Shown: piece by piece, positions 7,593 through 53,037 of the stretch | How positions within the stretch are numbered: position 1 is the stretch's first letter | Layout of the letters: every line of letters begins with the position of its first letter | Origin: Pseudomonadota bacterium | GTDB taxonomy: Bacteria; Desulfobacterota; Desulfobulbia; Desulfobulbales; SURF-16 | Direction: 5' to 3' | Assembly (NCBI GenBank): GCA_018897105.1 | Contig: JAHILF010000066.1 | Location: forward strand, 15,021 to 79,020 | DNA length: 64,000 bases | The notes under the pieces: model-generated | Told to the model about the DNA's origin: nothing | Databases searched by the model: none | The model's input: the letters and a program-made list of their open reading frames with translations, nothing else | Made by a program: the position numbers and the translations under genes

Positions 7593-7600
7593 GATTCCGC

Positions 7601-8662: not shown

Positions 8663-8663
8663 T

Positions 8664-8708: not shown

Positions 8709-8737
8709 TTCCTGCCGTTGCGTAAACTGTCTTCTTT

Positions 8738-8811
8738 CTGTAGGAGCGGGCCTTGCCCGCGATAAATGTTTCGGTAAGCCAGAGGGTCGCGGGCAAGGCC
8801 CGCTCCTACAG
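8738..8811. repeat. Perfect 25-bp inverted repeat (CTGTAGGAGCGGGCCTTGCCCGCGA / TCGCGGGCAAGGCCCGCTCCTACAG) with a 24-nt loop
   Basis: Arms at 8738-8762 and 8787-8811 are exact reverse complements. They lie between the mqnE stop and the mqnC start. Confidence 0.85.
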
Positions 8812-8898
8812 CCCCGAGAATTTCATAGCAGCGAAGCAGCATTATTAATCCCATTAGTCTCTTTGATCATGCCGTTCGGACCAGTCAAACCAAACCAA

Positions 8899-9993: not shown

Positions 9994-10051
9994 GAAATGA
10001 TCGCTCCCTTGCAAGTTTTGCTGCGTATGCCAGCACCACGCAACGTATTTG

Positions 10052-12141: not shown

Positions 12142-13130
12142 GCAACCCGGCTTTTTCCGTGGTTATTCCTGTTTATAACGAATCAGCCTGTCTCGATGAG
12201 CTGATCAGCCGCTGTCTGGCCTCCTGCCGCAGCACCGGGGAGTCCTTTGAACTGATCCTGATTGATGACGGCAGCCGGGACGGCTCCACCGAGATGATCA
12301 GCCGGGCGGCGGACCAGCATGCGGAAGTGGTCGGTGTGCTGCTTAACCGTAATTACGGACAGCATGCCGCGGTCTTTGCCGGTTTCCGGCAGAGCCTGGG
12401 ACCGATCGTTATCACCCTGGATGCCGATCTGCAGAACCCGCCGGAAGAGATACCCAAGCTGCTGCAGACCATGAACAAGGGCTATGACGTGGTGGGCACG
12501 GTACGGGTCAACCGCCAGGACAGCCTGTTTCGCAAGGCGGCCTCGGCCGTGGTCAACAAGGCGGTCCGCCAGGCCACCGGGGTGATGATGCACGATTACG
12601 GCTGCATGCTGCGGGCCTATCGCCGTCACATTGTCAATGCCATGCTGCAGTGCCGAGAGCATTCCACCTTCATCCCCATCCTGGCCAACAGTTTTGCCAG
12701 GAAAACCACCGAGATAGAGGTGCGCCACGCGGAACGGACCAAGGGTGAGTCCAAATACAGCCTGTTCAAACTCATCTCCCTGCAGTACGACCTGCTCACC
12801 TCCATGTCCACCTTTCCCCTGCGCCTGCTCTCCCTGATGGGCACAATCATTGCCGCCTGCGGGGTGGGCTTCGGCCTCTTTCTTATGATCATGCGTATTT
12901 ATTATGGCGCCACCTGGGCCGCGGAAGGTGTCTTTACCCTTTTTTCCGCCCTCTTTGTCCTGATCGGCGCCCTCTATCTTGCCCTGGGTCTCATGGGTGA
13001 GTATATCGGCCGCATCTACCATGACGTGCGCAGCAGGCCCCGCTATTTCATCCAGGAGGTGCGGGGCGGCAGCAATCTTGAGCACGCCGAAAACATGATT
13101 CATGCCGAATCCATCAGCAATCACCCCTAA
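12138..13130 (+). CDS. arnC: Undecaprenyl-phosphate 4-deoxy-4-formamido-L-arabinose transferase (GT2)
   Basis: [19 protein letters not shown] and [11 protein letters not shown], with C-terminal TM helices. ATGA overlap with arnB. Confidence 0.9.
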
Positions 13131-13230
13131 CCGGGGCTCAGTCACATTTTGGCACTGAACCCTCATAACTACGGTAAAAAACAGAACCGCATTTCCCTCT
13201 TCCTTTAACTGCATCCATCGGAGTTTTATC

Positions 13231-36173: not shown

Positions 36174-37835
36174 ATGAAGGTCAAGCCTCATCTGTTGATC
36201 ATTGATGACGATCCCCCCCTCAGGGATACCCTGAAGAGCATTCTTGAATGGCATGGATATGCTGTCTCCCTTGCCGGCACCGGCGCAGAGGCCCTGCAGT
36301 TTATCAGCAGTAACCAGCCTGATCTCGCCTTTGTCGACATGATGCTGCCTGACACCTGGGGCACCGAACTGATCAGAGATATAAAAAAAAATCACCCACG
36401 CCTGCTCTGCGTCATGATTACCGGCGACACTTCGACGGATTCGGTAATTGATGCCCTGCATCAGGGTGCGGACGCCTATTTTCAGAAACCTTTCAACATG
36501 GAGATCCTTCTCCCCAAGATTGAGTCGTTACTGGAAAAAAAACGGCTGCGCGAGGAAATCCGTCACCTCAATGAACTGCCCAGGATCATCCTTGACGGCA
36601 TCAACGAGTCCATTGCCATTATAGACATCCAGAATTTTTCCATTGTCACCGCCAACAAGGTATTTATCCGGGAAACCGGGCTGCCGGAAAATGAGGTCAA
36701 CGGCAAACCGTGTTATAGCGTGACCCATCATCTGACCGCTCCCTGTGAAGCTCCCGAGCATACCTGCCCCATTCGGGAAATTCTGGCCACCGGCAGCCAT
36801 GCCGCGGCCGAGCACGTCCATTACGATTCCCGTGGTAAGAAATCCTATGTGGAAATATCCGCCTCACCCATAAAGGACGAAACTGGCCACATCGTTCAGG
36901 TTATCCATGTATCCCGTGACATCACCAGCAAAAAGGAACTGGAAATCTCCCTGCAGAATGAGAGACTGCTGCTGGAAAAAACCAACACGCAGCTTGAGCA
37001 GGCATACAATGAACTGAAACAGACCCAGTCCCAGATCGTCCAGCAGGAGAAAATGGCCTCCATCGGCCAGCTCGCCGCCGGGGTTGCCCATGAGATAAAC
37101 AACCCCATGGGCTTTATCTCCAGCAATCTCGCCTCGCTTGACAACTATCTGGGGAAATTGACCCATTTTATTACATTTCAGGATTCGCTTATCACCGGCC
37201 TGCAGGATGAACAGGCCCTGCGCGAACTGCAGGATAACCGCAAAAAACTAAAAATTGATTATCTCCTCCAAGATATTCCCGCCCTGATTGCCGAATCTCT
37301 GGACGGTGCGGAAAGGGTCAAGATTATTGTCCAGAATCTGAAAAATTTTTCCCGGGTGGAAGGTAATGAGATATGCCTTACCAACATCAACGACTGCCTT
37401 GAGACCACCATGAACATCATCCACAATGAGCTGAAGTACAAGGCGGAGATCAGCAGGGAATACGGTGAGAACCTGCCCCAGGTAAAGGCTTCTCCCCAGC
37501 AGTTGAACCAGGTTTTCATGAATATCCTGGTCAATGCGGCCCAGGCCATAGAGAAAAAGGGGAAAATAACCATCAGAACCTGGCGGGAAAAAAGCAGTGT
37601 CCGGGTAGCGATCAGCGATACGGGTTGTGGTATTACCCAACAAAACCTGTCCAGGATTTTTGATCCGTTTTTCACCACCAAGGAGGTGGGCAAGGGAACA
37701 GGCCTGGGCATGAGCATCACCTATGACATCATTAAAAAGCACAATGGTACAATCTCCGTGGCAAGCGAGGTGGGCAGAGGCACGACCTTTACCGTGTCAC
37801 TGCCGGTTGCCGAACAGGCTGCAGAGTGCCCATGA
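36174..37835 (+). CDS. Hybrid REC-PAS-HisKA-HATPase kinase
   Basis: LLIIDDDPPLR..FVDMMLPDTWG; PAS with the CYSVTHHLTAPCEAPEHTCP motif; EKMASIGQLAAGVAHEINNPMGF; GTGLGMSITYDIIKKHNG. Confidence 0.9.
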   Translation: MKVKPHLLIIDDDPPLRDTLKSILEWHGYAVSLAGTGAEALQFISSNQPDLAFVDMMLPDTWGTELIRDIKKNHPRLLCVMITGDTSTDSVIDALHQGADAYFQKPFNMEILLPKIESLLEKKRLREEIRHLNELPRIILDGINESIAIIDIQNFSIVTANKVFIRETGLPENEVNGKPCYSVTHHLTAPCEAPEHTCPIREILATGSHAAAEHVHYDSRGKKSYVEISASPIKDETGHIVQVIHVSRDITSKKELEISLQNERLLLEKTNTQLEQAYNELKQTQSQIVQQEKMASIGQLAAGVAHEINNPMGFISSNLASLDNYLGKLTHFITFQDSLITGLQDEQALRELQDNRKKLKIDYLLQDIPALIAESLDGAERVKIIVQNLKNFSRVEGNEICLTNINDCLETTMNIIHNELKYKAEISREYGENLPQVKASPQQLNQVFMNILVNAAQAIEKKGKITIRTWREKSSVRVAISDTGCGITQQNLSRIFDPFFTTKEVGKGTGLGMSITYDIIKKHNGTISVASEVGRGTTFTVSLPVAEQAAECP

Positions 37836-37890
37836 CGATGATGTTTGCAGAAAGTACTCCATAAAGTCAAAGTACCAACGTGAAGACAAA

Positions 37891-38766
37891 ATGAACGATA
37901 TACAGGATTTAATCAGCCAGGTTGGAGATCTTCCCACTCTGCCGGACGTTGCCGCCCGGATCAACAGGGAAATGCAGAGCGAGTCGCTGAACGCCAAACT
38001 GCTTGGCGAGATCATCGCCGATGATTCCGCCCTGGCGGCGAAAATTTTGCGTCTTGCCAACTCCGCCTTTTACGGACTGTCGAAACAGGTGACTACCCTT
38101 AACAAGGCGGTCATGATTCTCGGCTTCAACGCCGTCAAGAATCTGGCTTTGAGCGTATCGATCCATTCTCTTTTCAAGGAACATCCCGACTCGCTTATAG
38201 ATGTCAAAGGGCTCTGGCTGCACAGTCTCGGCTGCGCCGTAGCCGCTAAAATCATTGCCGACAATCTGAACAAAAAGTTTGGCGATGAAGCCTTTTTATT
38301 CGGCATTCTGCATGATATCGGCAAGATCGTCTTCATCAATACGCGGCCCCAGGATTACGAAAAGGCCCTGGTTCTCCTTCAGGAACGGAATATGACCCAG
38401 GCCGAGGCCGAAATAGAGGTGATGGGGTTCAACCACCAGCGCTTGGGTTCCCAACTGCTCGATTTCTGGAAATTCCCGGACAATATTGTCCAGGCGATTA
38501 AATACCATCATGAACCGCAGTTAAAGACGGCCAAGCTCGATCCCCAGCTCCAAGACCTTATCCGCGCCCTTTTTCTCGGCAACCAACTGGCCAAGGCACT
38601 CAATCTGGGCAAGAGCACCAACCCGGCCCGAGAAGAGATTCCCAAGATAGTATGGCAGTCCTTAAACATCAAACGCAGTCAGGTCAGTGACATCGCCGGC
38701 AACATAAGAAACAGTTACGCCCTGCTGCTTGAGGCATGGGACATGGAGGGCAAAGACCATGTTTGA
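37891..38766 (+). CDS. HDOD-domain signalling protein
   Basis: LPTLPDVAARINREM..., ILRLANSAFYGL, GILHDIGKIVF. The ATG at 37891 is the start; the track extension to 37723 overlaps the preceding kinase. Confidence 0.85.
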   Translation: MNDIQDLISQVGDLPTLPDVAARINREMQSESLNAKLLGEIIADDSALAAKILRLANSAFYGLSKQVTTLNKAVMILGFNAVKNLALSVSIHSLFKEHPDSLIDVKGLWLHSLGCAVAAKIIADNLNKKFGDEAFLFGILHDIGKIVFINTRPQDYEKALVLLQERNMTQAEAEIEVMGFNHQRLGSQLLDFWKFPDNIVQAIKYHHEPQLKTAKLDPQLQDLIRALFLGNQLAKALNLGKSTNPAREEIPKIVWQSLNIKRSQVSDIAGNIRNSYALLLEAWDMEGKDHV

Positions 38767-39574
38767 GCAGGTCAAAATCCTCTGCGTGGACGATGAACCC
38801 AATGTGCTCCGCGCTCTCAAAAGACTTTTCATTGACGAGGATTATGAGATCATCACCGCAGCATCAGGGGAAGATGGCCTGGCAATGATGGAAAAGGAAT
38901 ATCCCGTGCAGCTGGTCCTCTCGGACTACCGGATGCCGGCCATGGACGGAGTGGACTTCCTCAAAAAAGTCTTCGAAAAATGGCCGGACACAATCCGCAT
39001 CGTTCTCTCCGGTTATGCGGATACCGCCGCCATCGTTGCCGCCATCAACGAGGGGAAGATATACAAATTTATCGCCAAACCGTGGGATGACAATGAATTA
39101 AAGGTGACCGTCGCCAAAGCGCTGGAAGTCTATTTCCTCAATGAGCAGAATCAAAGGCTAACCTGGGAACTGCAGCAGACAAACAAAGAACTCAACAAAA
39201 TCAACCAGAATCTGGAGGAAATCGTCAGAGAACGGACGAACGACATCCTGTTCCAGAACAAGGTACTGCAGTTCTCCCAGAATATACTGCACTGCCTGCC
39301 TGCCGCCGTGCTGGGCATTGACCCGGACGGTCTTATCGTGCAGAGCAACAGGATGTCAAATCAGATTTTTACGGCAAAAGGGGCTTCTCTGACCGGCTTG
39401 CAAATGGACGATGCCCTGCCGAACGATATCTGTTCACTCATCCGGTCCATTGCCGGCAAGGAAATCATGTCCACCCGCCTGGAGATCAACAACCGGACTT
39501 ACCTGGTCAATGGCGTTGCCATGGACAACTCGGATTCGCAGCAGGGGAAAATTCTGTTGCTGGTCCCGGTCTGA
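38759..39574 (+). CDS. Response regulator: REC (RpfG-type, KPWDDNEL) plus coiled coil plus a PAS-like C-terminal domain, with no recognisable output domain
   Basis: ILCVDDEPNVLRAL..LSDYRMPAMDG..KFIAKPWDDNEL. ATGTTTGA overlap with the HDOD stop. Confidence 0.85.
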   Translation: MFEQVKILCVDDEPNVLRALKRLFIDEDYEIITAASGEDGLAMMEKEYPVQLVLSDYRMPAMDGVDFLKKVFEKWPDTIRIVLSGYADTAAIVAAINEGKIYKFIAKPWDDNELKVTVAKALEVYFLNEQNQRLTWELQQTNKELNKINQNLEEIVRERTNDILFQNKVLQFSQNILHCLPAAVLGIDPDGLIVQSNRMSNQIFTAKGASLTGLQMDDALPNDICSLIRSIAGKEIMSTRLEINNRTYLVNGVAMDNSDSQQGKILLLVPV

Positions 39575-39639
39575 CAGATTCCGCCCTTACATAAACCGCG
39601 AGAACCAAAAAACTTATCGGATGAAACCGGAGCCGCACC

Positions 39640-40641
39640 ATGAACGAGAGCACTATCCACACCATACTTTTTGTCGATGATGAAAAAAGCATCTTAAAGG
39701 CCTTACACCGTATTTTCCTGGACGAGAATTACCATGTCCTCACCGCCGGAGGCGGCCAGGAGGCGCTTGATCTGCTCCAGACCGGAGAGAAACCAGCCGT
39801 GATCATCTCTGATCAGCGCATGCCCGGCATGGGCGGCGCTGAGTTCCTTGCCAAGGCCAGAAAAATTCTGCCGGACAGTATCCGCATGGTGCTCACCGGT
39901 TATGCCGATATCAATGCCGCCATGGAATCCATCAACCAGGGCGGGATATACCGCTATATCCTGAAACCTTGGAACGACGAGGAACTGAGGCTTGCCGTCA
40001 AAGACGCGGTTTTAATGTTTGACCTGATTAAGCAGAACAAAAGACTGACCATGGAGCTGGAGAAAAATAACCTTGCCCTGGTTGAGCTGAACACCTCTCT
40101 TGAACAGAAAGTGACGGAAAGGACCAGGGCGTTGAGCCAGATTATCCGGGAACTGGAAGGCAGAGACCGCATACAGCAATATCTGATGGAGGTTCACCCC
40201 TTAGACGAGCTTCTGCAGACCATTCTCAGCGTGGTGCATGAGGTTGCCAATATTTCCGGCTGCGCGTTCTTTCTGCAAGCCGATGATGATCGCGCGGAAC
40301 CCGCGCCTGCTGCGGCGGTCAATTTTGCCGAACGGCTGGACACAGACAACCATCAGGCGCTGGCCGAGGCGGTGCAGCAGGTCATGACCGCTGATGCGCT
40401 GAAAAATCAGACAATCCTGATCGGGCAATACAGCTATGTTGCCGTGCCGGTCCGTAAAGGCAGCAAAAATTTCGGAGCACTGGTCGTTAAAACGAACGGC
40501 GAGACCCCCTTTCACGAAAATACAATCCGGACCATCATCAGCTTTGCCAACCAGGCTGCTATCGGCATTCATGACTGCAAGTTTCAGGAAAACTTTGATG
40601 ATATCGAGGCCTCACTCGATGATGTTCTGTCGACCCTTTAA
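39640..40641 (+). CDS. Response regulator: REC (KPWNDEEL type) plus coiled coil plus a GAF-like domain
   Basis: ILFVDDEKSILKAL..ISDQRMPGMGG..YILKPWNDEEL. The C-terminal ~150 aa are GAF-like. Confidence 0.8.
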   Translation: MNESTIHTILFVDDEKSILKALHRIFLDENYHVLTAGGGQEALDLLQTGEKPAVIISDQRMPGMGGAEFLAKARKILPDSIRMVLTGYADINAAMESINQGGIYRYILKPWNDEELRLAVKDAVLMFDLIKQNKRLTMELEKNNLALVELNTSLEQKVTERTRALSQIIRELEGRDRIQQYLMEVHPLDELLQTILSVVHEVANISGCAFFLQADDDRAEPAPAAAVNFAERLDTDNHQALAEAVQQVMTADALKNQTILIGQYSYVAVPVRKGSKNFGALVVKTNGETPFHENTIRTIISFANQAAIGIHDCKFQENFDDIEASLDDVLSTL

Positions 40642-40695
40642 TGACAAAGGGCGACTGAAAAAAGTATCCGCCGCACTTAATTACCGGAGCCCCGC

Positions 40696-42840
40696 GTGAG
40701 CCCTGCCAAGAAAAAATCCTTTGAATCCCTTGAAGACGCCTATCTGAAGGCTCTTGACCTTGACGAGAAACCGGAGGAAGAGAAAGACAGGCCCTCATCT
40801 ACCCAGGATCAGCAGGATCTCACTGCCTCCCTGCAGAGGGTAAAGGCATGGCAGGGCAAGGAACTTCTCCTCTCTCCGGACAATATGTCCGTTACTCTGG
40901 TGCTGACGGGTGGAGAACCGATTACCGCGACGCAGATCAAGCTTGCCCTGGAACAGTCCGGCATCATTTACGGCATCAGTCCCGGCGCGCTGCAGAAAGT
41001 GGAAGAGATCTCCCGCTCACCGGAAAAGACGGGAAAATTTCTCCTTGCCGCCGGAACTCACCCGCAAATAAGCCGCAGGATCACATTCCCCTTTTTAACA
41101 AACAGACCTGATGCAGGGCACACCATGCACCAGGCAGCGGCAGAACTCGATTGCGCCGCGCTGCAAAACCTGTTTTCCGCTCCCGACCTGATCGCTGTCC
41201 ATGCCGCCGCACTGCTGGTCAAGGCAGTGAATGCCGGAGAGGTGCTGCTGAAAATACAGGAAAACCCCGATGCCCAACCCGGCCGGGATATTTACGGCCA
41301 TGAAATCGAATGTATTGCCGAACCCTTGCCTGGAGGAGGCGACAATGTAGTATTTAATGTAACAGGCTGGAGTTACGAGGCAACGGCATATGGCTACCTC
41401 CTCGTTGCCGAAAACACCCTGTCCGTTCTCCCTCCTCTGTGGATAACAGCCGACCGAAACGCCGCCTATTATCTTTGCCTTCCCCAGCTTGCTCCCTGCA
41501 GATACCCTACCACAATCGATATAAGCGAGATGCTGCTGAAGGCGGGCATCCATGAAAAATGTATTGATCCTGCCGCCATTGAAAACATGGTGGCACAGAT
41601 GGCCGCAGGCCTCACCCTTCCCCGCACGATCAAACTGGCCGAAACAGTGCAACCCCTACACGGGCATGCCGCCACCTTTTCTCTTTCCTTTGATGCGGCA
41701 AAGAAAGCCGGGGCGCTGCGCCATGACGGTTCACTTGATCTGCGGGAGCGAAACGCCGTGGTCAGCGTTTCCGCGGATACCCTTATTGCCGAAAAGAATC
41801 TGGCGACCATAGGTGTTGCCGGATGCACGCTTTTCGGCAAACCCATCAAAGCTACCCCGGGTGTTGACAAGAAAATCAGCATCGGCCAAGGGGTCAGGGT
41901 TGAAGAGAAAAAAGACGTCATCCGCTATTTTGCCGAAAAAAACGGCAACGTCAAATTCAGCAAAAATACCCTCGCCGTGCAGGACATATTCGAAATTTCC
42001 GGCGATATTGACTATTCTACTGGAAATATAAACGTAAAAACCGACCTGTTGATCAAAGGATCGGTTCTCAGGGGCTTTACCGTCAAATCCGAGGGTGACA
42101 TCGCCATCATGGGCGCCGTGGAGAACGGGGCAACCGTCATTGCCATGGGAAACCTGACAGTGGACAAGGGGATCATCGGCGAAAACAGCAAGGTTGTCAG
42201 CCGCGGCAATCTCCGCACAGGCTATATCCAGGACGCGGAGGTGATCGTCAAGGGGGATGTGATCATCGGCAGCTATCTCTTCAACTGCATGCTCATCGCC
42301 AGCGGCAGCATCACCGTCCTCAGGGAGCAGGGGCAAAAAAGAAGCGGCAGGGTGGTGGGCGGCATTATCTGTTCAGCGAAAGGTATCAGGTTGAGCACCA
42401 TCGGCAGCCCCGGCAAACCGGGGACAGTTGTCGCCCTGCGCACTGATCCGGAAATCGTGGCCGGCTTGAAAAAACTGGAAGAACAGCTCTTGTCCTGCAC
42501 CAGCAATATCACCAAAATCTCACGCAGCCTTCCCTTTGATTCGTTCGATGCCGGTCAGATAAAAGCCGCTCTGGCCCGCATCCCCGCCGCCAAGAGGGAT
42601 GGCCTCGTTCTGCTGTTAACCAACCTGAACAAACTGATCAAACACAGGAAAACCCTGTCGGAAACAATGGAGCAGTTACGCAGCCGCATTGATCTTTCTT
42701 TACACAATGCCCGCATTGAGGTGATCCAGGAAATTTTTCAGGGAAGTGAGATTCACATCGGCGGCCAGCACTTCATTATACCCCAGGATATGGGGCCCTC
42801 TCTCTTTAAGTTGCATGACGGGAAAATCATCCGCGCCTGA
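40696..42840 (+). CDS. DUF342/FapA-family protein (beta-helix C-terminal region)
   Basis: 714 aa with a GTG start. Repetitive G-x-I/V-x-V beta-helix-like stretch (GDIDYSTGNINVKTDLLIKGSVLRGFTVKSEGDIAIMGAVENG..). The assignment is from overall pattern, not an HMM. Confidence 0.65.
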   Translation: MSPAKKKSFESLEDAYLKALDLDEKPEEEKDRPSSTQDQQDLTASLQRVKAWQGKELLLSPDNMSVTLVLTGGEPITATQIKLALEQSGIIYGISPGALQKVEEISRSPEKTGKFLLAAGTHPQISRRITFPFLTNRPDAGHTMHQAAAELDCAALQNLFSAPDLIAVHAAALLVKAVNAGEVLLKIQENPDAQPGRDIYGHEIECIAEPLPGGGDNVVFNVTGWSYEATAYGYLLVAENTLSVLPPLWITADRNAAYYLCLPQLAPCRYPTTIDISEMLLKAGIHEKCIDPAAIENMVAQMAAGLTLPRTIKLAETVQPLHGHAATFSLSFDAAKKAGALRHDGSLDLRERNAVVSVSADTLIAEKNLATIGVAGCTLFGKPIKATPGVDKKISIGQGVRVEEKKDVIRYFAEKNGNVKFSKNTLAVQDIFEISGDIDYSTGNINVKTDLLIKGSVLRGFTVKSEGDIAIMGAVENGATVIAMGNLTVDKGIIGENSKVVSRGNLRTGYIQDAEVIVKGDVIIGSYLFNCMLIASGSITVLREQGQKRSGRVVGGIICSAKGIRLSTIGSPGKPGTVVALRTDPEIVAGLKKLEEQLLSCTSNITKISRSLPFDSFDAGQIKAALARIPAAKRDGLVLLLTNLNKLIKHRKTLSETMEQLRSRIDLSLHNARIEVIQEIFQGSEIHIGGQHFIIPQDMGPSLFKLHDGKIIRA

Positions 42841-42956
42841 ATGTTTTACGCCACCAACCCTCACCAGATGGACAAACCGTTGCCACCATTCTTTGTCGAC
42901 GTAGATTGTTGATGCACTCCTTGAAGATATGCGACTCAAACAGGGATAAAAATGGT

Positions 42957-42984
42957 TTGACATCACCATTTAAAAAATTATAGC
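42957..42984 (+). promoter_or_regulatory. Candidate sigma70-type promoter TTGACA-N16-TATAGC upstream of the hydrogenase genes
   Basis: Read directly. It is about 155 nt upstream of the large-subunit ATG in a 298-nt AT-rich gap. Confidence 0.3.
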
Positions 42985-43138
42985 TTATCCTAATGAGTCT
43001 GTCAGAGTTATACGGTTGTTTTTCTTAAGAGAACAACCTCGTAGAAGTCGACCGATAATTTTTTTTAACAATTATGTCACTCGTTGTTTGCAGGTTTCTT
43101 ACCCCAGACTGTTTAAACCATCCAGAACAGGTTGAATC

Positions 43139-44650
43139 ATGAAAATCGAACTTGGCCCCCTGTCCCGCATTGAAGGTCACCTCAATGTCAAGACGACCGT
43201 CACCGACAATGTCGTTGTGGATGCCCAGTGCGTCGGAGAGATGTTTAGGGGATTTGAGGTGATACTGAGAGGCCGTGACCCCCTCGATGCCCAGCAGATC
43301 ACCCAAAGAATCTGCGGAGTGTGCCCCTATGCCCATGCCATTGCCTCTTCCTATGCCCAGGAAAACGCCTACGGCATCACTCCGCCCGCCAATGGCCGCA
43401 TCCTGCACAACCTGATTCAGGGGGCCAACCATCTTTACGACTACCTCCTGCATTTCTATCAGCTTTCAGCCCTCGACTTTGTCGATATTACCGCCATTGC
43501 CAACTACAAAGGATCGGACGCTGAACTCGTCCAGGTGAAAGATTGGGTCAAGGCGGAATTGGCCTCGAAGAAGGCCTTTCCCGGCGCCCCGTTTCTCCCC
43601 CGTCTTGAAGGGCAATACATAAAGGACGATGACCTCAATATAGGAGCGCTCAAGCACTATATCGAGGCCATGGAGATACAGAAGAAGGCTATTCGGGCAT
43701 CAGCGATCTTTGGTGGCAAATTTCCCCACGCAACCGGGATATTCCCCGGCGGTTGCAGCCAGAAGCCGACTATAGACCATATCTCTGCCTATCAGGCCTT
43801 GATCGAGGAAGTCAGAGATTTTATCCATCAGAAATATATCCCCGACCTCCTGGCCGTCGCCCAGGCATTCCCTGAATACTGGCACATCGGCCAGAGTCGC
43901 GGCGGCTTCATGTCCTTTGGCCTGCTCCCCTTCGCTCCGGCGAGCGGCAGTCGGCGGCTGTTCGCCTCGGGCTTGCTGCTGGACGGCAAAGTCCAGCCTG
44001 TCGATTTTGGTCTTATCACCGAAGATGTCAGATACGCCCGCTACTCATCAGCCAGCGGCCTCAACGTCAAGGAAGGGGAGCTGATCCCTGACCCTGAAAA
44101 AAATGGGGCCTACACCTGGATCAAGGCGCCGCGCTATAACGGGCAGATGGTCGAAGTCGGGCCAGCGGCCAGGATTCTGGTCGACTATCGGCAAGGGAAC
44201 AACCAACAGGTGACCACACTGGTCAATCACTTCGCGGGCCTGGCCGGCATCAGTGCCAATGAGTTGAACTCCGTCCTGGGCCGTCATCTCTGTCGAGCGA
44301 TCTGCGCGGTTGTTATTGCCGACTTTCTGCTGGAGGAAACCGAAAGGATCAACCCGGGCGCCCCGGCCTCACTCGAACTTGAAATCCCCGCCACCGGCGA
44401 AGGCTTCGGCGCTACCGAGGCCTCCCGTGGGGCACTTTTGCACTATATCCGTCTGCAGAATCATAAGATCGAGAAATATGAGTGCGTGGTGCCGACGACA
44501 TGGAACTGCTCCCCCCGCGACGATCAGGGGAATCCCGGAGCAATGGAATCGGCTCTGATCGGCACCAAGGTGGCGAACCAGGCAGTACAGATTGAATCGG
44601 TACGGATAGTCCACTCTTTTGATCCATGCCTGGCCTGTGCCGTCCATTAA
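43139..44650 (+). CDS. [NiFe] hydrogenase large subunit, sensor-like (no C-terminal maturation extension)
   Basis: RIEGH; N-terminal ligand motif RICGVCPYAH; C-terminal DPCLACAVH immediately followed by TAA. 503 aa. Confidence 0.9.
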   Translation: MKIELGPLSRIEGHLNVKTTVTDNVVVDAQCVGEMFRGFEVILRGRDPLDAQQITQRICGVCPYAHAIASSYAQENAYGITPPANGRILHNLIQGANHLYDYLLHFYQLSALDFVDITAIANYKGSDAELVQVKDWVKAELASKKAFPGAPFLPRLEGQYIKDDDLNIGALKHYIEAMEIQKKAIRASAIFGGKFPHATGIFPGGCSQKPTIDHISAYQALIEEVRDFIHQKYIPDLLAVAQAFPEYWHIGQSRGGFMSFGLLPFAPASGSRRLFASGLLLDGKVQPVDFGLITEDVRYARYSSASGLNVKEGELIPDPEKNGAYTWIKAPRYNGQMVEVGPAARILVDYRQGNNQQVTTLVNHFAGLAGISANELNSVLGRHLCRAICAVVIADFLLEETERINPGAPASLELEIPATGEGFGATEASRGALLHYIRLQNHKIEKYECVVPTTWNCSPRDDQGNPGAMESALIGTKVANQAVQIESVRIVHSFDPCLACAVH

Positions 44651-44665
44651 CAAGAGGCTTCTTCG

Positions 44666-45574
44666 ATGCTGAACAGACGTGAATTCATGACCATGGCTGC
44701 CGCACTCTGCACCGCCTTTGGTGTGAGCAACCTCCCCGAACCCGTAGCCGCTGCACTCAAACAGATCGACCCTCGGACCATTCCCAAACTGCTCTACCTC
44801 CAGGGCCAGTCCTGCTCGGGATGTTCCATCTCTTTACTCCAGGCCAAGGAACCATCCCCCCTCACCTTGATCACCAGATATTCCCAGCTTGCCTTTCATA
44901 CCGATCTTTCGGCGACCAGCGGCTCACAGGCCATGAATCTTATCGAGCGTTATCTCGCCGGTGAGGCTGGGCAATACATCCTGGTCCTGGAAGGGGCCAT
45001 CCCGGAGAAAATGCCATCGGCCTGCATGATTGGCGATAAGCCCCTGGCCAGCCTACTCGAATCGGGAGGCAGGACCATGACAGCCGCCATTGCCATTGGC
45101 GCCTGCGCCTGCGATGGCGGAATCCCCGGGGCGGAAGGGAATTTAACCGGCGCTATCGGCTTGCCGGAATTTTTTGCCCAGCGGAATATCGAAAAACCAC
45201 TGATCCAGATCCGGGGCTGTTCCGTTCATCCTGACTGGGTCTGGCAGACAGTAGTCCACCTGGTCAAAGTAGGGATGCCCGAGCTTACTGAAACAGATTC
45301 ACCCAAGCTCTTTTTTAACCGCAGCATCCATGATGCATGCCCCAGGTACCACGACTTCCAGGAAGAAATTTTTGCGGAGAAACTGGGAGATAGCGGTTGT
45401 CTCTTTAAGCTTGGCTGCCTCGGTCCACAGACTAAGGCAGATTGTTCCAGCCGTTGGTGGAATGGCGGGCAAACCTGGTGTATCAATGTCAATGCTCCCT
45501 GCATCGGCTGCGCATCCCCCCTCTTTGCCCGACAAAAAAACATGCCGTTCTATCGCATGAAGAAAAAAGCGTGA
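44666..45574 (+). CDS. [NiFe] hydrogenase small subunit with a twin-arginine leader and ligands for three FeS clusters
   Basis: [24 protein letters not shown]; [10 protein letters not shown]; GACACDGG; GCSVHP; [10 protein letters not shown]; [17 protein letters not shown]; [12 protein letters not shown]. Confidence 0.9.
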
Positions 45575-45617
45575 CCAGATTCCCAAAAATGCACCCTGCC
45601 CAGGAGGATATACGGCC

Positions 45618-47279
45618 ATGAACAAATCTTTGCTTGCCAGCCGGTCGATAACCGTAAAACTGGTTGTTTCAGTTGTGGTGACGCTGTTCGCTGCGATACT
45701 TGTCGGCACGCTGCTGCTGAACAACTATGTCCGCAGTGAGATGACCAGCGCCTACATGATTTCCGTCAACAACCTGGCCCAGTCTCTCCAGCAGGGAGTC
45801 AAGGATTCGCTGGAACGAGGGCAGATGGGGAGTTTCCAAAAGCTTCTCCTGCGCCAGAAAGACATTCGAGGGGTAGTGGATGTCTCTTTGTATGACCGGC
45901 AGTTACATGGCAACCTCTCCTCCTCCGAGAAATCCATCAAAGGGCAAACCTTGCCGGATGAGTTAAAAAAGGAGCTACTGTCCATCAAAGAACCGCTGGT
46001 CAAAATCAGCCCCAAGTCGATTCAGATATACACTCCGCAAATGGTGACGCAGGACTGTATCCGTTGCCATCCCTTCTGGCAGGAGAATGAACAGGGCGGA
46101 ATGATTGCGCTCACCTTCGACTTGACCCCCTTGCATCAAGCGCTGGGGAAACAGAAAGTTATGCTGAGCGTGGGCAGTCTTGCCCTGATTATGATTGTCA
46201 GTGCCATAATCTTTCTCCTGGCGCGTTCACTCACCAAGCCGGTGGTGCAGATGACCAAGGCCATGGTGCGTCTGGCCGACGGCGATTTGCGCGTCGAAAT
46301 CCCGGCCCAGGATAGAAAGGATGAAATCGGCGAGATGGCCGCCGCTGTCCAGGTCTTTAAAAACAACGCACTCGACCGACAACGTCTCACGGCAGAACAA
46401 GAGGCAGGAAAACAGCGGGCCGCCCTGGAAAAAACAGCCCTCATGAACAAACTTGCCGCTGATTTTGAAGCCAATATCGGCGGGCTCATCAGCGGGGTAA
46501 CGGCAGCGGTCGCCCAGCTGGAGGCAAACGCAAAGAAAATGGCCGACAATGCTTCCCAGACCAAGACAAAATCCGATTCTGTGGCCATGGCTGCGGCGAA
46601 TACATCCGCCAATGTCATGACCGTTGCCTCGGCCACGGAAGAACTATCAAACTCGGTGAGTGAAATCAGCCACCAGGTCGCTAAGTCGGCTGGGGTCGCC
46701 CGCAATGCGGTGCAAAAGGCCAGTCACACCAACCAGATGGTCGGCAGCCTGGCAAATTCCTCAAAAAAAATCGGCGAAGTCGTCAAACTGATTACTGATA
46801 TTGCCGGACAGACCAAACTGCTGGCTTTGAACGCCACCATCGAGGCGGCCCGGGCCGGTGAGGTCGGCAAAGGCTTTGAGGTGGTGGCCAACGAGGTCAA
46901 AGAATTGGCTAAACAGACCACCGCCGCCACCAAAGAGATCAGCGATCAGATCGCCGACATTCAAGGGGCGACCAACGAGGCAGTCGAGGCAATTCGCGAC
47001 ATTGGCGCCACCATCGGCGAGATCGATGAGATTTCGACAAGCATCGCCGCTTCGGTTGAGGAGCAGGGAGTTGTCACCCTGGACATTGCCAAGAATACCC
47101 AACAGGCGGCAACCGGGTCCAAGGCGGTATCCGGCGACATCTCCATCGTCGCTGCTGCAGCCGACGAAACCGGGGTGACTGCCGCTTACGTTTTGGACGC
47201 CGCCTCCGCTCTCAGCCAGAAGGCCAATGCCCTGCGCCATGATGTCACCCTTTTCCTTGAGACCATCAGGTCGTCCTAA
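45618..47279 (+). CDS. Methyl-accepting chemotaxis protein with a periplasmic CxxCH (haem c) sensor domain, HAMP and MA domains
   Basis: TM1 at aa 13-34. The periplasmic loop contains DCIRCH (C147/C150/H151). TM2 at aa 181-202. HAMP ([12 protein letters not shown]). Signalling hairpin [34 protein letters not shown]. Confidence 0.9.
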
Positions 47280-47291
47280 CCGGAGCAGTGT

Positions 47292-50200
47292 ATGGCATTC
47301 ATTGACGACGACGAAACATTACAGTCCTTCAAGGACGAATCCCACGAGCATCTGGACGGAATTGAAAACGACCTCCTTGCCATTGAGGAGGCTGGCGCCG
47401 ATATCGATCTTGAATTGGTCAACAAGGTCTTCCGCGCCATGCACTCCATCAAGGGTGGCGCCGGTTTCCTGGGTCTCAATGCGGTAAAGACCCTGGCTCA
47501 TGCCGCTGAAAACCTGTTGAATAAAATTCGTAATAAGGATCTCGTGCCGACCACCCCGGTCATCAGCGGTCTCCTGGATGCGGCCGACCTCGTCAATCGC
47601 TTGCTGAACCAGCCGAAAGGGGCCGTTGAACTTGACATTTCCGGCCCCCTGGCTGCTCTGAACAGCATCCTCTCGCCCGAATCTGATCAAGCTGCCCCAC
47701 CACCTGGTGTTTCCCATGCAAACAAGCCCGGCACGCCCGGTCAGCCAGCTTCCTGGCAGGGCCTGCTTACAGAGCACAGTGCCGAGATCGCCGACAATCG
47801 TCTGGGCGGATTCGGAATCTTTGTCCTCGAGTTCGAACGGAGCAGCGATGGCGAACAACAGGGGCTTTCCCCAACCATCCAAACAACTCTCGAGAGTATC
47901 GGTCAGGTTCTCGGCAGCCAAACCGACGACAGTTCGGCAGCCTCCCCTCAACCTACCTATGTCCTCTACGCGACCATGATGGAAAGGGATATGCTCGTAT
48001 CCTTTGCCGGTCTACCACCGGAACGGGTCCATGAAATCCAGGAACAGGCGGAACCTGCCCCCGCCTCGCCTGTTCCGACGGTTGAACCGAGCCCCATCCC
48101 GGCACCGGTGGCAGAAGAATCGCCGTCACCATCGCCGTCGAAAAACGTGGCTGCCGACAGTGCCCCGCAAACCAAAGCTGGAACGGACAGCAGCCTTCGG
48201 GTCAACATCAAAATCCTTGATAACCTGATGACCCTGGCGGGAGAGCTGGTGCTGACCCGCAATCAGTTTCTGCAAATCGTCCACTCCTCCCACCAGCAAA
48301 TCTTTGACGCCGTCTCCCAACGCTTTGACCTGGTCACCTCCGAACTCCAGGAAGCCATCATGTGCACCCGTATGCAACCGGTTGGCAACATTTTCAATAA
48401 ATTCAAACGCGTGGTTCGGGATTTGGCCCATAAACTTGGCAAAGAGATCGATCTGGTCTTGGAAGGCGGTGAGGTCGAAATGGATAAGACCATCATCGAG
48501 GCCTTGACCGACCCCCTGACCCATCTGGTACGCAACTCCGTTGACCACGGCATCGAAACACCGGACAAGCGAACAGCAGCCGGCAAAACACCCTGCGGCA
48601 CACTTCAGATCAAGGCCTTTCATGAAGGAGGCCAGGTCATCATCGAAATAGTCGATGACGGTGGCGGTATTGATACTGCCCGAATCAAAGAAAAGGTCTT
48701 GAGCATGGGCACCCATGACAAGTCCCAGATCGAAGCAATGCAGGAACATGAGCTTTTGCGGCTCATCTTCCTGCCCGGTCTCTCCACCGCCAAAGAGGTG
48801 ACCGATGTCTCTGGACGAGGCGTGGGCATGGATGTGGTGCATGCCAACCTCTCCAAGGTGGGCGGCGTCTTCGACATCGCCAGCAAACTGGGCAAAGGCA
48901 CCACCATCACCATCAAACTGCCCTTAACCCTGGCCATTATCCCCAGTCTGATCGTCAGTGTCGGCACCGAACGCTATGCCATCCCGCAGGTTAACATGGT
49001 CGAGTTGGTACGGGTGCCGGCATCCAAGGTCAAACAGCGAATCGAGAGGATCGACGAGGCGCTGGTGATCAGACAGCGCGGCAGGCTCTTGCCACTCATC
49101 AGTCTGGCCGAGGCGCTGGGTATCGAAAAACGCTACTATCAAGTCCCTAAAACGAAGCAGGTCAAGGTCTGCCAGCGGCAATTGATCGAAGACCGCCGGA
49201 GCTGCACCGCGCCCTCGGGTGAAGACAGTGAGAACTTGACCTCTGCCGGCTTCGGAGTCACTACAGGCGTCTCTGAAGTTAACCAGGAAAATCGTGAGAG
49301 TCCAGACCGTCGCACAAGCCCGCAAAGCGCCGTCAATATCGTTGTTGTCTCGGTGGGTAAATTTCATTACGGCCTGATTGTTGACAAGCTGCTTGATTCG
49401 GAAGAAATCGTGGTTAAGCCCCTGGGCTCACATCTGCGTCAATCTCAGCTCTATGCCGGCGCTACCATTCAGGGCGACGGCAAGGTGGCACTGATCCTTG
49501 ATGTGGTGGGAATCAGCAAGTTCATGAACCTCTCGTCGGGCTCCGTCCGGGTGCGTGATAGAGGGCCACAGGAAACCGAACGAATCAATCCGGATGCTCA
49601 GACCTTGCTTCTGGTCCGAAACTCGCCCAAAGAACAGCTGGCCATCCCCTTAAACCTGGTCTCCCGGATCGAAGAAATACAGCGCGATCAAGTTGAACTT
49701 ACCGGCGGCAGAAGCAATATGCAGTATCGAGGCTCAACCCTGCCCCTGTTTTCTATTAATGAGGTTGCAAAGGTTGCCCCTCTCCAGGAGGACAGCAGCA
49801 ACCTCTATGTGGTGGTCTTTCCTTTTGGTGAACGAGAAGCCGGGATCATGGTGTCGGAGATCATCGATATCGTCACCGTGATCGGCGGCCTTGATGATAC
49901 GACTCACAAACAACCAGGTATCATGGGTTCGGTCATTATCATGAAAAAAATCACCATGCTAGTCGATCTCTTTGGCATCGTTGCCGCAATGATGCCGGAG
50001 TGGATCCGGCACACCAGCCTTGGCACCAAAAGCGGCCAGGGTCAACATATCCTGGTGGTGGAAGATTCGCCATTTTTTAACCGCCAGATCTGCGGGTTCG
50101 TCTCGGATGCCGGGTACAAAGTCTTCAGCGCCACCGATGGTGTTGAAGGTCTTGCCCTTCTCGAGCGTGAAAAAATTGACCTCATCCTCACCGATATCGA

Positions 50201-50402
50201 GATGCCTAACATGGACGGACTGGAATTCACGGCTCGGGTACGTACCGATGCCCGCTGGTCGGGAATGCCAATCATCGCTGTCACCTCATTAAACAGTGAG
50301 GCTGCAGAAAAACGCGGTCTGAAGGCAGGGGTTAACGAATACATGATCAAACTGGATCGAGAAAAAGTTATTCATACGATTAACAGCTATCTCAAACATT
50401 AA
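47292..50402 (+). CDS. cheA: CheA-type histidine kinase hybrid: Hpt, Pro-rich linker, dimerisation/HATPase, two CheW-like domains, C-terminal REC
   Basis: FRAMHSIKGGAGFLGL (Hpt His51); DPLTHLVRNSVDHGIE; GRGVGMDVV; two CheW-like blocks; ILVVEDSPFF..LILTDIEMPNMDG. Confidence 0.92.
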   Translation: MAFIDDDETLQSFKDESHEHLDGIENDLLAIEEAGADIDLELVNKVFRAMHSIKGGAGFLGLNAVKTLAHAAENLLNKIRNKDLVPTTPVISGLLDAADLVNRLLNQPKGAVELDISGPLAALNSILSPESDQAAPPPGVSHANKPGTPGQPASWQGLLTEHSAEIADNRLGGFGIFVLEFERSSDGEQQGLSPTIQTTLESIGQVLGSQTDDSSAASPQPTYVLYATMMERDMLVSFAGLPPERVHEIQEQAEPAPASPVPTVEPSPIPAPVAEESPSPSPSKNVAADSAPQTKAGTDSSLRVNIKILDNLMTLAGELVLTRNQFLQIVHSSHQQIFDAVSQRFDLVTSELQEAIMCTRMQPVGNIFNKFKRVVRDLAHKLGKEIDLVLEGGEVEMDKTIIEALTDPLTHLVRNSVDHGIETPDKRTAAGKTPCGTLQIKAFHEGGQVIIEIVDDGGGIDTARIKEKVLSMGTHDKSQIEAMQEHELLRLIFLPGLSTAKEVTDVSGRGVGMDVVHANLSKVGGVFDIASKLGKGTTITIKLPLTLAIIPSLIVSVGTERYAIPQVNMVELVRVPASKVKQRIERIDEALVIRQRGRLLPLISLAEALGIEKRYYQVPKTKQVKVCQRQLIEDRRSCTAPSGEDSENLTSAGFGVTTGVSEVNQENRESPDRRTSPQSAVNIVVVSVGKFHYGLIVDKLLDSEEIVVKPLGSHLRQSQLYAGATIQGDGKVALILDVVGISKFMNLSSGSVRVRDRGPQETERINPDAQTLLLVRNSPKEQLAIPLNLVSRIEEIQRDQVELTGGRSNMQYRGSTLPLFSINEVAKVAPLQEDSSNLYVVVFPFGEREAGIMVSEIIDIVTVIGGLDDTTHKQPGIMGSVIIMKKITMLVDLFGIVAAMMPEWIRHTSLGTKSGQGQHILVVEDSPFFNRQICGFVSDAGYKVFSATDGVEGLALLEREKIDLILTDIEMPNMDGLEFTARVRTDARWSGMPIIAVTSLNSEAAEKRGLKAGVNEYMIKLDREKVIHTINSYLKH

Positions 50403-50421
50403 TTCCGCCCGGACACTCCCT

Positions 50422-50877
50422 ATGCAGCCATCACCTACCGCCAATGCCACCAAGCGCAAACTGGCCCTGTTTGAATCCGGGCATCTTCTTTGCGGCCTCG
50501 ATATCATCCATGTGCAGGAAATTAATAAAAATATCGCTGTGACTGCTGTCCACCGCGTCCCCGACTATGTGCGGGGGGTGATCAACCTGCGGGGAGAGAT
50601 TGTGACAGTGGTTGATCTGCGCACAAAATTCGGTTTTGCCCCCCTAGCTCAGGAGGCCGAAGAACAGATTGTCATAGTCCGACTCGGCGATGAGAATATC
50701 GGACTCCTGGTGGACTCGGTCAGCGATGTGGTGATCGCTGATGAAAAAGATATTGAACCCACACCCCCAAATCTGGCAGGGGTGCCAGGGCACTTCTTCA
50801 AAGGTATCTATAAACTTGAACAAAGCCTGGTTGCTATCTTAAATATAGAAAAGCTTCTGGCCAGAGAATTCGAATAG
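50422..50877 (+). CDS. cheW: CheW coupling protein
   Basis: [42 protein letters not shown]. Confidence 0.9.
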
Positions 50878-50909
50878 CCGTCACGCTTCTTATACAGGGG
50901 GAAATACTG

Positions 50910-52184
50910 ATGTCGCTCAGCACAAAACTCTTTACGGCCCTTGCGGTCACAGCATTGCTGGCGGCAAGCCTGGTTGCCGCCAATCTGTATGGTGCCAGCG
51001 CTTATCTTCAATGGGCGGTCACCCTGACCATGGAGATCCTTCTGGCATGGGCCTTTGTCCTGGCGCTCTCCCTGACCAATGACCTGAGGCGCATAGGGGT
51101 TGTTTGCCGAAAGACAGTTTCGGGCAGTCCAGCCTCAATTGCCGGAACTGCGAATGATAATGATTTGGCCGCTATCGATGCAGCGCTGACGAAAAATGCA
51201 GCCGACTATCAAGAACTTGCCACCACACTCCGGCAAGGAGTCGAAGAACTGATCGCACAGGGCTCAGGACTGTCCTCCCTGGCTGCACAGTCAATGGCAA
51301 AGCTTCATTCAGCCTCAGCAATTTCGTCTTCGGCGGAAGCAGCCATCAAGACCCTGGCCCTTCATGCCGCTACTGTAGCCAGTCGCTTTGAGAGATTGAA
51401 TGCCGGCATGGGCACGGCTACCAACACCGCCAGCGAGTCGGCAGCGCAAGTCAGCATGATTATTGGCGCCACGGAAAAAATGAGCGCCACCATTGCGAAC
51501 ATTGCAATAAGTGCGGAAAAGGCCAGGAGTGTGGCAGGTGCTGCGGTCTCCAATGTCAATGCGGCCTCAAACCGGGTGGACGAACTGGGTGCCGCCGCCT
51601 TGGAAATCAACAAGGTAACGGATGTTATCGTTGAAATCGCTGAACAAACGAAACTGCTGGCTTTAAACGCCACCATTGAGGCCGCTCGAGCCGGTGAAGC
51701 GGGCAAAGGATTCGCCGTCGTCGCCAACGAGGTCAAGGAACTTGCACTGCAAACCAATAACGCTATCGCCGAAATCTGCAACAAAGTCGAGGCAATGCAG
51801 AACTCAACCGACAACACGATCGCTGAAATCGGGGCCATCAATCAGTCCATCAAGGCCGTGAACGAAATTGTAGTCACCATCGCCGGCGCCGTGGATGAGC
51901 AATCGATCCCCACCAAAGACGTGGTCAGGCAGTTAAATCAATGGGTGAAGGGCATCAATATCATCAAGGAAGCGGTAAACGCCGCTGTAGCAGAAGTAAA
52001 AGAAACATCCGTCAACATCAACAAAGTAGCCGCGATCTCTCAGGAACTGGCTGAAGAATTCGCCGCTGTCGCCCCGAGGGACGAAGACCTCTCCCCACTT
52101 CTCGCCTCCATAAAGCAACAGTCCGATGACCTGCAGTCTACCGGCGAAAAATTACTCGCCAAAATAGACGGTGAACAGCTTTGA
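50910..52184 (+). CDS. Methyl-accepting chemotaxis protein without a periplasmic sensor or HAMP (two closely spaced TM segments plus MA domain)
   Basis: [34 protein letters not shown]. The N-terminal hairpin of TM helices has only a short loop. Confidence 0.88.
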
Positions 52185-52197
52185 TGGGACGTTAAAG

Positions 52198-53037
52198 CTA
52201 TTCCCTTCCCTTTTGGAAATAGATCGTATTGCAACTCTCGTTTCTGATAAAACGGTCGCTGATGCCAAAAATTGACTCCGTAGAACCGATGATCAAAACG
52301 CCTTCCGAGCGGAGACAGGTGGCCATCGTTTGAAATAACCGACGCCGATTTTTCTGATTGAAATAGATTGCCACGTTGCGGCAGAGAATAATATCATACA
52401 CACCAGGTCCCTCGGGGGCGGCGAGGAGATTCGTCTTATTAAATACGGTCATGGCCCGCAAATCGGCCCTGACTTTCAATAATTCTCCCTGAGACTCGAA
52501 ATATTTCCGACAAAGACCAAGGGGCACCCCTCGTTCCACCTCATAGCGGGTGTAGAGCCCTTTTTGGGCCTTCTTGATGGCAACATCTGAGATATCAGTA
52601 CCGGTTATGGTGATATGCCACCTCTTCATTTCGTCGCCAAGAAGTTCCGCGATGATCATGGCTAGAGAGTAAACCTCCTGCCCGGTTGAGCAGGCAGCGC
52701 TCCAGATCTGCAGCCTGGGCGGGGTTGGGTCGCTTCCGTTTTGTCGTTTGCCAAAAAATTCGGGCAAAATCTTTGCCTGTAGCAACTCAAAGGGCCGCTG
52801 GTCGCGAAAAAACGAAGTTTCGTGGGTAGAAATGGCATCCACAACCCGAGCCTCCCATTCCTCTGAGCGGTAGCCGGCATAAAAAAACTCAGCGAAGCTC
52901 TTGGCTCCATACTCATCCAGCAACGGCCCCAGGCGGCTTTCCAGGAGATAAGCCTTGGTGCTGTTTAAGACAATTCCACTGCGGGCGTGAATGAACTCCG
53001 CAAACAGCTTTACCTCTTCGGGCGTGATGGAAATCAT
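52198..53037 (-). CDS. cheR: Chemotaxis protein methyltransferase CheR
   Basis: THETSFFRD, IWSAACSTGQEVYSLAM, IILCRNVAIYF. ATGA overlap with cheB. Confidence 0.92.
   Translation of the reverse strand: MISITPEEVKLFAEFIHARSGIVLNSTKAYLLESRLGPLLDEYGAKSFAEFFYAGYRSEEWEARVVDAISTHETSFFRDQRPFELLQAKILPEFFGKRQNGSDPTPPRLQIWSAACSTGQEVYSLAMIIAELLGDEMKRWHITITGTDISDVAIKKAQKGLYTRYEVERGVPLGLCRKYFESQGELLKVRADLRAMTVFNKTNLLAAPEGPGVYDIILCRNVAIYFNQKNRRRLFQTMATCLRSEGVLIIGSTESIFGISDRFIRNESCNTIYFQKGRE

Follow-up and report, generated by a model that had tools for sequence, protein, structure and literature searches.

The stretch of DNA analysed here (the window) comprises 64,000 nucleotides of contig JAHILF010000066.1 from a Desulfobulbales bacterium (assembly GCA_018897105.1), and window positions are counted from its first letter. 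Three genes lie next to each other on its plus strand. The first, hydL (43139..44650), recognised by PF00374 and by reading of its open reading frame (ORF), encodes the large subunit of a [NiFe] hydrogenase, 503 amino acids (aa) long and naturally without a C-terminal maturation peptide. The second, hydS (44666..45574; PF01058 and PF14720), encodes the small subunit of 302 aa with a twin-arginine translocation (Tat) leader and ligands for three [4Fe-4S] clusters. The third (45618..47279) encodes a chemoreceptor of 553 aa, a methyl-accepting chemotaxis protein (MCP). The features of this module and of its relatives suggest, on balance, that the hydrogenase HydLS serves as the H2 input of the receptor.

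Standard [NiFe] large subunits carry a C-terminal extension of about 15-30 residues, which is removed by a specific endopeptidase after nickel insertion. The initial annotation had claimed that HydL ends at the nickel-site histidine without such a cleavable peptide, and this is borne out by the codons, the spacer and the homologues. Nucleotides 44621-44650 (GAT CCA TGC CTG GCC TGT GCC GTC CAT TAA, plus strand) close the 503-aa ORF of 43139-44650, and the L2 nickel-site motif DPCLACAVH is thus followed at once by TAA. The spacer between hydL and hydS (44651..44665, plus strand) measures 15 nucleotides (nt) and contains the Shine-Dalgarno-like AAGAGG, while the two alternative frames downstream of the CAT codon run into stop codons after 7 and 10 codons. 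With so short a spacer and such early stops in the other two frames, a hidden tail of 15-30 residues is impossible. HydL also matches the Pfam model PF00374 from end to end (model positions 1-508, 498 bits). More than 100 database homologues with 70-92% identity to HydL are 503-504 aa long, and all 12 of those whose ends were read terminate in C[AS]VH. In 19 of 19 further contigs carrying the hydrogenase-chemoreceptor module the ending is DPC[LI]AC[AS]VH followed by a stop, and the same tail-less ending was found in all 23 relatives read. This confirms that the tail-less end of HydL is a family trait. A sequencing error concealing a longer frame, the doubt attached to the initial annotation, is ruled out by the spacer, the early stops and the 23 concordant homologues. 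The nearest outsiders, two Spirochaetota sequences (L026 and L027, 47% identity) and the representative P0121, have a 14-residue tail after the histidine and a small-then-large (S-L) gene order; relative to them, the absence of the tail is specific to the HydL branch.

Some further observations concern the hydL sequence itself. In the window, hydL and hydS share one reading frame (43139-45574), separated by TAA and five sense codons. Their relative phase differs in another module locus (L008), so the shared frame is not conserved, and it is probably a coincidence rather than programmed read-through. In two loci and one database protein (L011, L013 and P0001; 92-95% identity) the large subunit reaches 514 aa through an 11-residue tandem duplication (GLLPFTQTSDS GLLPFAQTSAN) near residue 270, in a surface loop, with the C-terminus unaltered. 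One match (L029; CAVSQR010000043.1, 6001-6657) covers large-subunit residues 1-219 only, at 95% identity. It lies on a second contig of the metagenome-assembled genome that holds the full module L012, and may represent either a truncated second copy or an error of assembly or binning.

The best solved relative of HydL is the large subunit of the periplasmic [NiFeSe] hydrogenase of Desulfovibrio vulgaris (374 bits). Against NF033181, the NCBIfam equivalog model for the [NiFeSe] type, HydL scored 582.7 bits, just below the cut-off of 600. The match spans model positions 3-495 of 507, and the last 12 positions, which belong to the tail, are unmatched. The catalytic and gas-channel motifs of HydL are standard (RIEGH, CGVC, CPYAH and L109). 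The small subunit gives the same picture. Its leader consists of NRREFM, a hydrophobic core and AAA-LK, as in twin-arginine signals, and residues 2-297 of HydS align to the precursor of the D. vulgaris [NiFeSe] small subunit, leader included. HydS holds the complete set of ligands for its proximal, medial and distal clusters; at the medial position, where [3Fe-4S] enzymes have proline, it has a cysteine (TWC). It stops where the D. vulgaris subunit stops, without a C-terminal peptide of the HoxB type, and hydropathy analysis found no hydrophobic segment that could act as a membrane anchor. The twin-arginine leader is present in 20 of 20 module loci and in all 23 small subunits read. HydLS is therefore best described as a periplasmic-type, catalytically standard, group 1a-derived and tail-less hydrogenase, which judging from its leader is presumably exported by the Tat pathway.

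A search for substitutions common to the tail-less transducer-linked enzymes yielded only F244, in addition to a partial trend from proline to serine or alanine in the PRG motif. As to the latter, Ser429 of HydL (window 44423-44425, in the motif EASRGAL) takes the place of the proline of this conserved motif beside the active-site arginine. The position holds serine or alanine in 15 of the 19 transducer-linked tail-less enzymes and alanine in HoxC, while 38 of 59 tail-bearing representatives have proline. The change may reflect a convergent trend.

According to Pfam (HAMP and MCPsignal) and hydropathy, the MCP consists of a first transmembrane helix (TM1, residues ~13-35), a Cache/PAS-like periplasmic domain, a second helix (TM2, ~181-203), a HAMP domain and an MCP signalling domain. 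The periplasmic domain of ~145 residues bears the motif CIRCH (46056..46070, plus strand), a putative attachment site for a c-type haem. Across the module loci the sensor domains are homologous (40-94% identity), and the residues C, R, C and H of CxRCH are invariant in all 19 aligned domains, as are SLERGQM, LYD, SS, W and GG. A single CxxCH stands at about residue 147 in most module loci (range 145-186 across the 20 predicted ORFs). The sensor domain of the window had no match in Pfam; that of the homologue in L008 matched PF21563 (E-value 0.016) and PF11845 (E-value 0.025), both below the gathering scores. A sequence search of solved structures found no match either, and a comparison of folds alone gave information. 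In its AlphaFold2 model (pLDDT 86.3) the domain has an extracytoplasmic PAS/Cache fold, and Foldseek aligned it with WalK-type extracytoplasmic PAS/Cache domains (TM-scores 0.70-0.77) and with the Geobacter haem sensors 3b42 and 3b47. Haem is predicted to be attached to the sensor domain.

Such a domain could itself be a gas sensor, for example for nitric oxide (NO). The hydrogenase would then only keep the haem ferrous or poised, and H2 would be a supply of reductant rather than the signal. The distant relationship to the haem-Cache family indicated by the two Pfam models and by the Foldseek matches speaks for this explanation, as does the tight binding of NO by an sCache_heme domain fused to a signalling module in the one case tested (PMC12889525). 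However, the Pfam matches are sub-threshold, so membership of the NO-sensing group is not established, and a whole dedicated hydrogenase would be a costly means of keeping one haem reduced. A need for a hydrogenase is moreover unreported for other members of the haem-domain family, and the word 'hydrogenase' is absent from PMC12889525. We consider this explanation improbable.

A coupling of the hydrogenase to a transducer is suggested by the conservation of gene order. All 20 loci whose large subunit shares at least 68% identity with HydL (L008-L025, L028, and L044 in the complete genome G278) have the order hydL-hydS-MCP. The genes around the unit were listed for three loci and are different in each. 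No redox partner gene was detected in 23 loci, and no gene for a cytochrome b or c3 lies inside the conserved three-gene unit. To follow the wider clade, 401 genomes of the phylum were scanned and the regions retrieved. Two loci with 49-51% identity (L045 and L046) encode a tail-less enzyme with a Tat leader in the large-then-small (L-S) order, and the next gene encodes an MCP that bears the same haem domain; the P0135 clade (loci L047 and L065) also has the layout L-S-haem-MCP. In a sister clade (P0122/L043), a tail-less hydrogenase with a Tat leader, again L-S, is followed by a membrane kinase of 782 aa. Its periplasmic domain is homologous to the sensor domain and has two CxxCH motifs, and its cytoplasmic part contains an Hpt domain and a CheA-like ATPase; CheW-binding domains were not detected in it. 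The genes of L043 lie on the minus strand of G278:C1:790000-808000 at 8803-10392, 7813-8793 and 5468-7816. The complete genome G278 carries the MCP-linked enzyme, the kinase-linked enzyme and in addition a canonical uptake enzyme in the order S-L-cytochrome b, with a tail of 17 aa. In a metagenome scan, among the loci where gene order and large-subunit terminus were both readable, every S-L locus had a tail of 13-20 aa, and the only two L-S loci were both tail-less.

These data bear on one alternative, namely that HydLS is an ordinary respiratory uptake hydrogenase that reduces a soluble periplasmic pool of cytochrome c, and that the haem MCP is an independent energy- or redox-taxis receptor reading the same pool. 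The standard catalytic and gas-channel residues would fit this. The nearest relatives among solved and curated proteins are [NiFeSe] enzymes of respiration, and the genome of the window yielded no further hydrogenase of group 1 or 2. It is at odds, however, with the lack of a redox partner gene in the 23 loci and with the constant presence of a transducer bearing the same haem domain, despite varied outputs and surroundings. Genome G278 has its canonical cytochrome b-linked enzyme besides, and a respiratory role leaves unexplained why tail loss and an inverted gene order accompany the link to a transducer. On this evidence we regard the respiratory explanation as unlikely, albeit the most serious of the alternatives.

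The genome of the window (177 contigs totalling 4.95 Mb, with 100% completeness according to marker genes) was searched for the maturation genes. The genes hypF, C, D, E, A and B are clustered on another contig (C69), in trans to the module. A single gene for a HycI-type endopeptidase was found, on contig C9, ~6 kb from the gene of a selenocysteine-containing large subunit with a 27-residue tail, the one tail-bearing hydrogenase of the genome. As for the remaining enzymes, C8:89882-91030 encodes a group 3-like large subunit of 433 aa ending in DPCISCSVH-stop, and C157:~13000-14216 a group 4-like one of 386 aa ending in DPCISCTER-stop, both tail-less. One protease thus matches one tail, since the enzyme on C9 alone has a tail and HydL and the enzymes on C8 and C157 do not. 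The initial annotation, which had noted the absence of a protease gene and proposed a check for hyp genes and an endopeptidase, was right as far as the window is concerned; the genome as a whole does encode one endopeptidase, and the check showed a complete hypFCDEAB set with that lone endopeptidase beside the tail-bearing enzyme. No relatives of HoxO, HoxQ and HoxT, the Tat chaperones specific to membrane-bound hydrogenases, were found by tblastn with the proteins of plasmid pHG1, a test of low sensitivity. Naturally tail-less [NiFe] hydrogenases are listed in groups 2b, 2d, 4c, 4e and 4g, and the usual Hyp machinery matures large subunits that have no tail (PMC7294309). When the tail was deleted from a membrane-bound hydrogenase, the cofactor was inserted and the enzyme was active and exported by Tat, while tail-deleted Hyd-2 of E. 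coli was exported empty (PMC7294309). That list contains no lineage in which a large subunit without a tail is combined with a small subunit bearing a Tat leader.

For the phylogeny, a maximum-likelihood tree was built with the tails trimmed. The nine transducer-linked sequences formed one clade (support 95/89), and its sister group was made up of the tail-bearing P0121 and the Spirochaetota (99/98). Joining the P0135 clade to the transducer-linked clade gave a better likelihood than the free search had found (p-AU 0.81 in the approximately unbiased (AU) test). In the free trees HydL stood far from HoxC, beside tail-bearing group 1a-like enzymes; a forced union of the transducer-linked enzymes with the HoxC clade was 37.7 log-likelihood units worse, although the AU test does not reject it (p-AU 0.125). 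Loss of the tail required at least seven changes on the tree, and two further hydrogenases of the same genome, those on C8 and C157, also lack it. Because of these repeated losses and of the tail-less enzymes on C8 and C157, a missing tail alone is weak evidence for a sensor. The initial annotation had taken the absence of the tail as the mark of an H2-sensing enzyme. Of this, the sensor reading is supported by the gene context, but the tail itself is not diagnostic, and what the comparison supports is a sensor role resting on context more than on the missing tail.

Further signalling genes follow and precede the module. On the plus strand, 12 nt after the MCP gene, a CheA-type kinase with a C-terminal receiver is encoded (47292..50402; Hpt domain, kinase core and receiver read by eye). 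It is followed after 19 nt by a gene for a CheW-like protein (50422-50877) and after another 32 nt by one for a second MCP-like protein (50910-52184), both on the plus strand and, like the convergent cheR-like gene at 52198-53037, recognised by sequence inspection. Upstream, on the same strand, the interval 36174-42840 encodes a REC-PAS histidine kinase, an HDOD protein and a FapA/DUF342 protein, as well as two receiver proteins, one of them with a GAF domain (all by Pfam). In view of these upstream genes, the hydrogenase module lies within a larger cluster for signalling and motility. A scan of 42600-52400 for promoters and terminators gave counts not above the shuffled expectation, so the short gaps are the only evidence for an operon; the scan found no plus-strand terminator between hydS, the MCP gene and the cheA-type gene. 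The neighbourhood differs in L008, from a Desulfobacter-type genome, where genes for a GGDEF-EAL protein and a FIST-domain protein (L008:11957-14818, minus strand) stand convergent to the module directly after the MCP gene. The GGDEF-EAL neighbour recalls the 'diguanylate-cyclase-linked' label of group 2c in HydDB, but it is not kept in the other loci.

On the evidence as a whole, it is more likely than not that HydLS represents a periplasmic lineage, related to group 1a, which has lost its tail and now serves as the H2-input module of membrane signal transducers, here of a chemoreceptor. The sensor-type enzyme maturing without a protease that the initial annotation had envisaged gains support from the synteny in 20 of 20 loci, the coupling to the haem domain in other branches, the hyp genes in trans and the position of the endopeptidase gene beside a tail-bearing hydrogenase. 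In the mechanism we propose, HydL would receive the NiFe(CN)2CO cofactor from HypABCDEF, acting in trans, with no endopeptidase step, as the precedents of the regulatory hydrogenase and of a tail-deleted membrane-bound hydrogenase suggest. HydS would assemble its three [4Fe-4S] clusters and carry HydL across the membrane via Tat. The soluble HydLS heterodimer could then dock on the MCP at its periplasmic Cache/PAS-like domain with haem c. Oxidation of H2 would alter the redox or ligation state of the MCP haem, the likeliest mode being direct electron transfer from the distal cluster; this is the least certain step. The change at the haem would be passed through TM2 and the HAMP domain to the CheA-type kinase with its receiver and to CheW, and thereby bias swimming with respect to H2.

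As to the coupling itself, H2-dependent reduction of the receptor haem appears most likely, because the haem motif is retained across partners with different cytoplasmic outputs and because no other acceptor is encoded. Alternatively, H2 might be sensed without net electron transfer, with a change in the state of HydLS relayed by protein contact, as proposed for HoxBC-HoxJ, and with the haem serving, for example, redox integration. How the one H2 sensor complex characterised to date works is still under debate, and formation of a complex is part of its mechanism (PMC6978683); the tail-less large subunit is shared with the HoxBC system. Every partner, the kinase with two haem motifs included, nevertheless has the invariant CxxCH, which argues for a central role of the haem, and we hold coupling by contact without electron transfer to be improbable. 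The fully specified form of our favoured explanation is a dedicated periplasmic H2 receptor, in which a Tat-exported hydrogenase free of the tail checkpoint hands the electrons of H2 straight to a haem borne by a chemoreceptor or, in the sister clades, by a CheA-like kinase. We put this forward only tentatively, and with less confidence than the general role as an input module.

Several points weigh against a sensory role of HydLS. Nothing in the enzyme itself, as far as its residues can be read, points to a sensor: H14, V61, H66 and L109, which belong to the active site, the proton relay and a wide gas channel of the energy-converting type, are present in 19 of 19 transducer-linked sequences. 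HydL is also the sole periplasmic-type hydrogenase found in its genome, so that it may have a respiratory role as well or instead. The functional links are all drawn from gene neighbourhood. A single haem on the MCP would be a dead end for electrons unless it is re-oxidised. Finally, the haem-Cache proteins of the signalling type that have been tested to date act as NO sensors (PMC12889525).

If the sensory role is true, the consequences would be considerable. To our knowledge, no bacterial chemoreceptor for H2 has been characterised, and the only understood H2 sensors we know of are the cytoplasmic HoxBC/HupUV proteins, which control transcription. HydLS would represent a second class of [NiFe] hydrogenases that sense H2, one of independent evolutionary origin, and would imply true bacterial chemotaxis to H2. 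It would also show how anaerobes of sediments detect H2, the main currency of interspecies electron transfer. As far as its export can be judged from the leader, the family would in addition be a natural case of Tat 'hitch-hiking' that dispenses with proteolysis as a checkpoint, a step held to set the timing of subunit assembly. Being small, the three-gene unit lends itself to direct testing.

Among the classes in HydDB, group 2c comprises putative [NiFe] sensors linked to diguanylate cyclases, and [FeFe] group C2 is labelled as putatively 'chemotactic' (PMC5037454). In both, as in HydLS, H2 sensing has been inferred from gene context (PMC5037454). The group 2c enzymes are cytosolic with the L2 consensus SFDxCLVCTVH (PMC4853749) and are linked to diguanylate cyclases or phosphodiesterases, whereas HydL has the L2 motif SFDPCLACAVH, a partner with a Tat leader and an MCP as neighbour. 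Group 2c was thus set apart by its published description, since neither the quoted consensus (PMC4853749) nor the cytosolic location fits. The [FeFe] enzymes of group C2 are a different enzyme class, fused or linked to cytoplasmic MCP modules. The searchable literature, which leaves many subscription papers outside the search, gave no account of a chemoreceptor-coupled [NiFe] hydrogenase, and on hydrogen taxis it yielded only the HydDB classes and one archaeal behavioural study. A branch of tail-less exported hydrogenases beside a receptor with a haem motif thus appears to be undescribed.

For a comparison with the classical sensors of group 2b (HoxBC-HoxJ and HupUV-HupT), HoxC and HoxB of Cupriavidus necator were taken from plasmid pHG1. 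HoxC, like HydL, ends at the nickel-site histidine (...CTVH), and HoxBC matures through the Hyp proteins without an endopeptidase, as HydLS would. HoxBC also adjoins the gene of a signal transducer whose input it is thought to be, and HoxB, like HydS, has a cysteine at the position of the medial cluster. The differences are more numerous. HydL and HoxC share only 30% identity (211 bits), and HoxB lacks a Tat leader and has a C-terminal peptide of ~50 aa for oligomerisation and kinase binding, whereas HydS has the leader and no such peptide. HoxC has EGD, Ile62, Gln67 and Phe110 in place of RIEGH (with H14), Val61, His66 and Leu109 of HydL; Ile62 and Phe110 mark the narrow gas channel of group 2b, EGD and Gln67 its altered L1 region. 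I, F, D and Q are the residues of the HoxC clade at those positions, and 19 of 19 transducer-linked sequences differ from it. The gene order is S-L in HoxBC and L-S in HydLS. The partner of HoxBC is a cytoplasmic PAS kinase (HoxJ/HupT), which together with an NtrC-type regulator controls the transcription of hydrogenase genes, while here an MCP with a haem-motif domain and then che genes follow. The alignment with HoxC suggested in the initial annotation therefore shows similar termini, but the Tat leader, the standard residues and the low identity indicate that HydLS is not of the HoxC/HupV type, and a classical group 2b sensor is rejected on account of that leader, of the residues in the active site and gas channel and of the genomic context, although not by the AU test alone.

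The receptor finds its counterparts in GSU0582 and GSU0935 of Geobacter (PDB 3B47 and 3B42; sCache_heme or DUF3365-Tll0287 family), which like the MCP described here have one periplasmic Cache/PAS-like domain with one CxxCH between two transmembrane helices. The sequence match to these haem-c sensors is, however, below the Pfam thresholds, and no dedicated hydrogenase has been described for the Geobacter-type receptors (PMC12889525), unlike the MCP of the window. The closest counterpart of the hydrogenase is HysAB of the sulfate reducer D. vulgaris Hildenborough (group 1a), the best sequence match for both subunits. Like HydLS, HysAB has a Tat leader, three [4Fe-4S] clusters and standard catalytic residues, and neither has a membrane anchor or a cytochrome b. 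Group 1a enzymes have a tail of 14-15 residues removed by a protease, the gene order S-L and often selenocysteine, and they deliver electrons to cytochrome c3 for respiration. HydLS, in contrast, has no tail, the order L-S and a cysteine in place of selenocysteine, and is always adjoined by a signal transducer.

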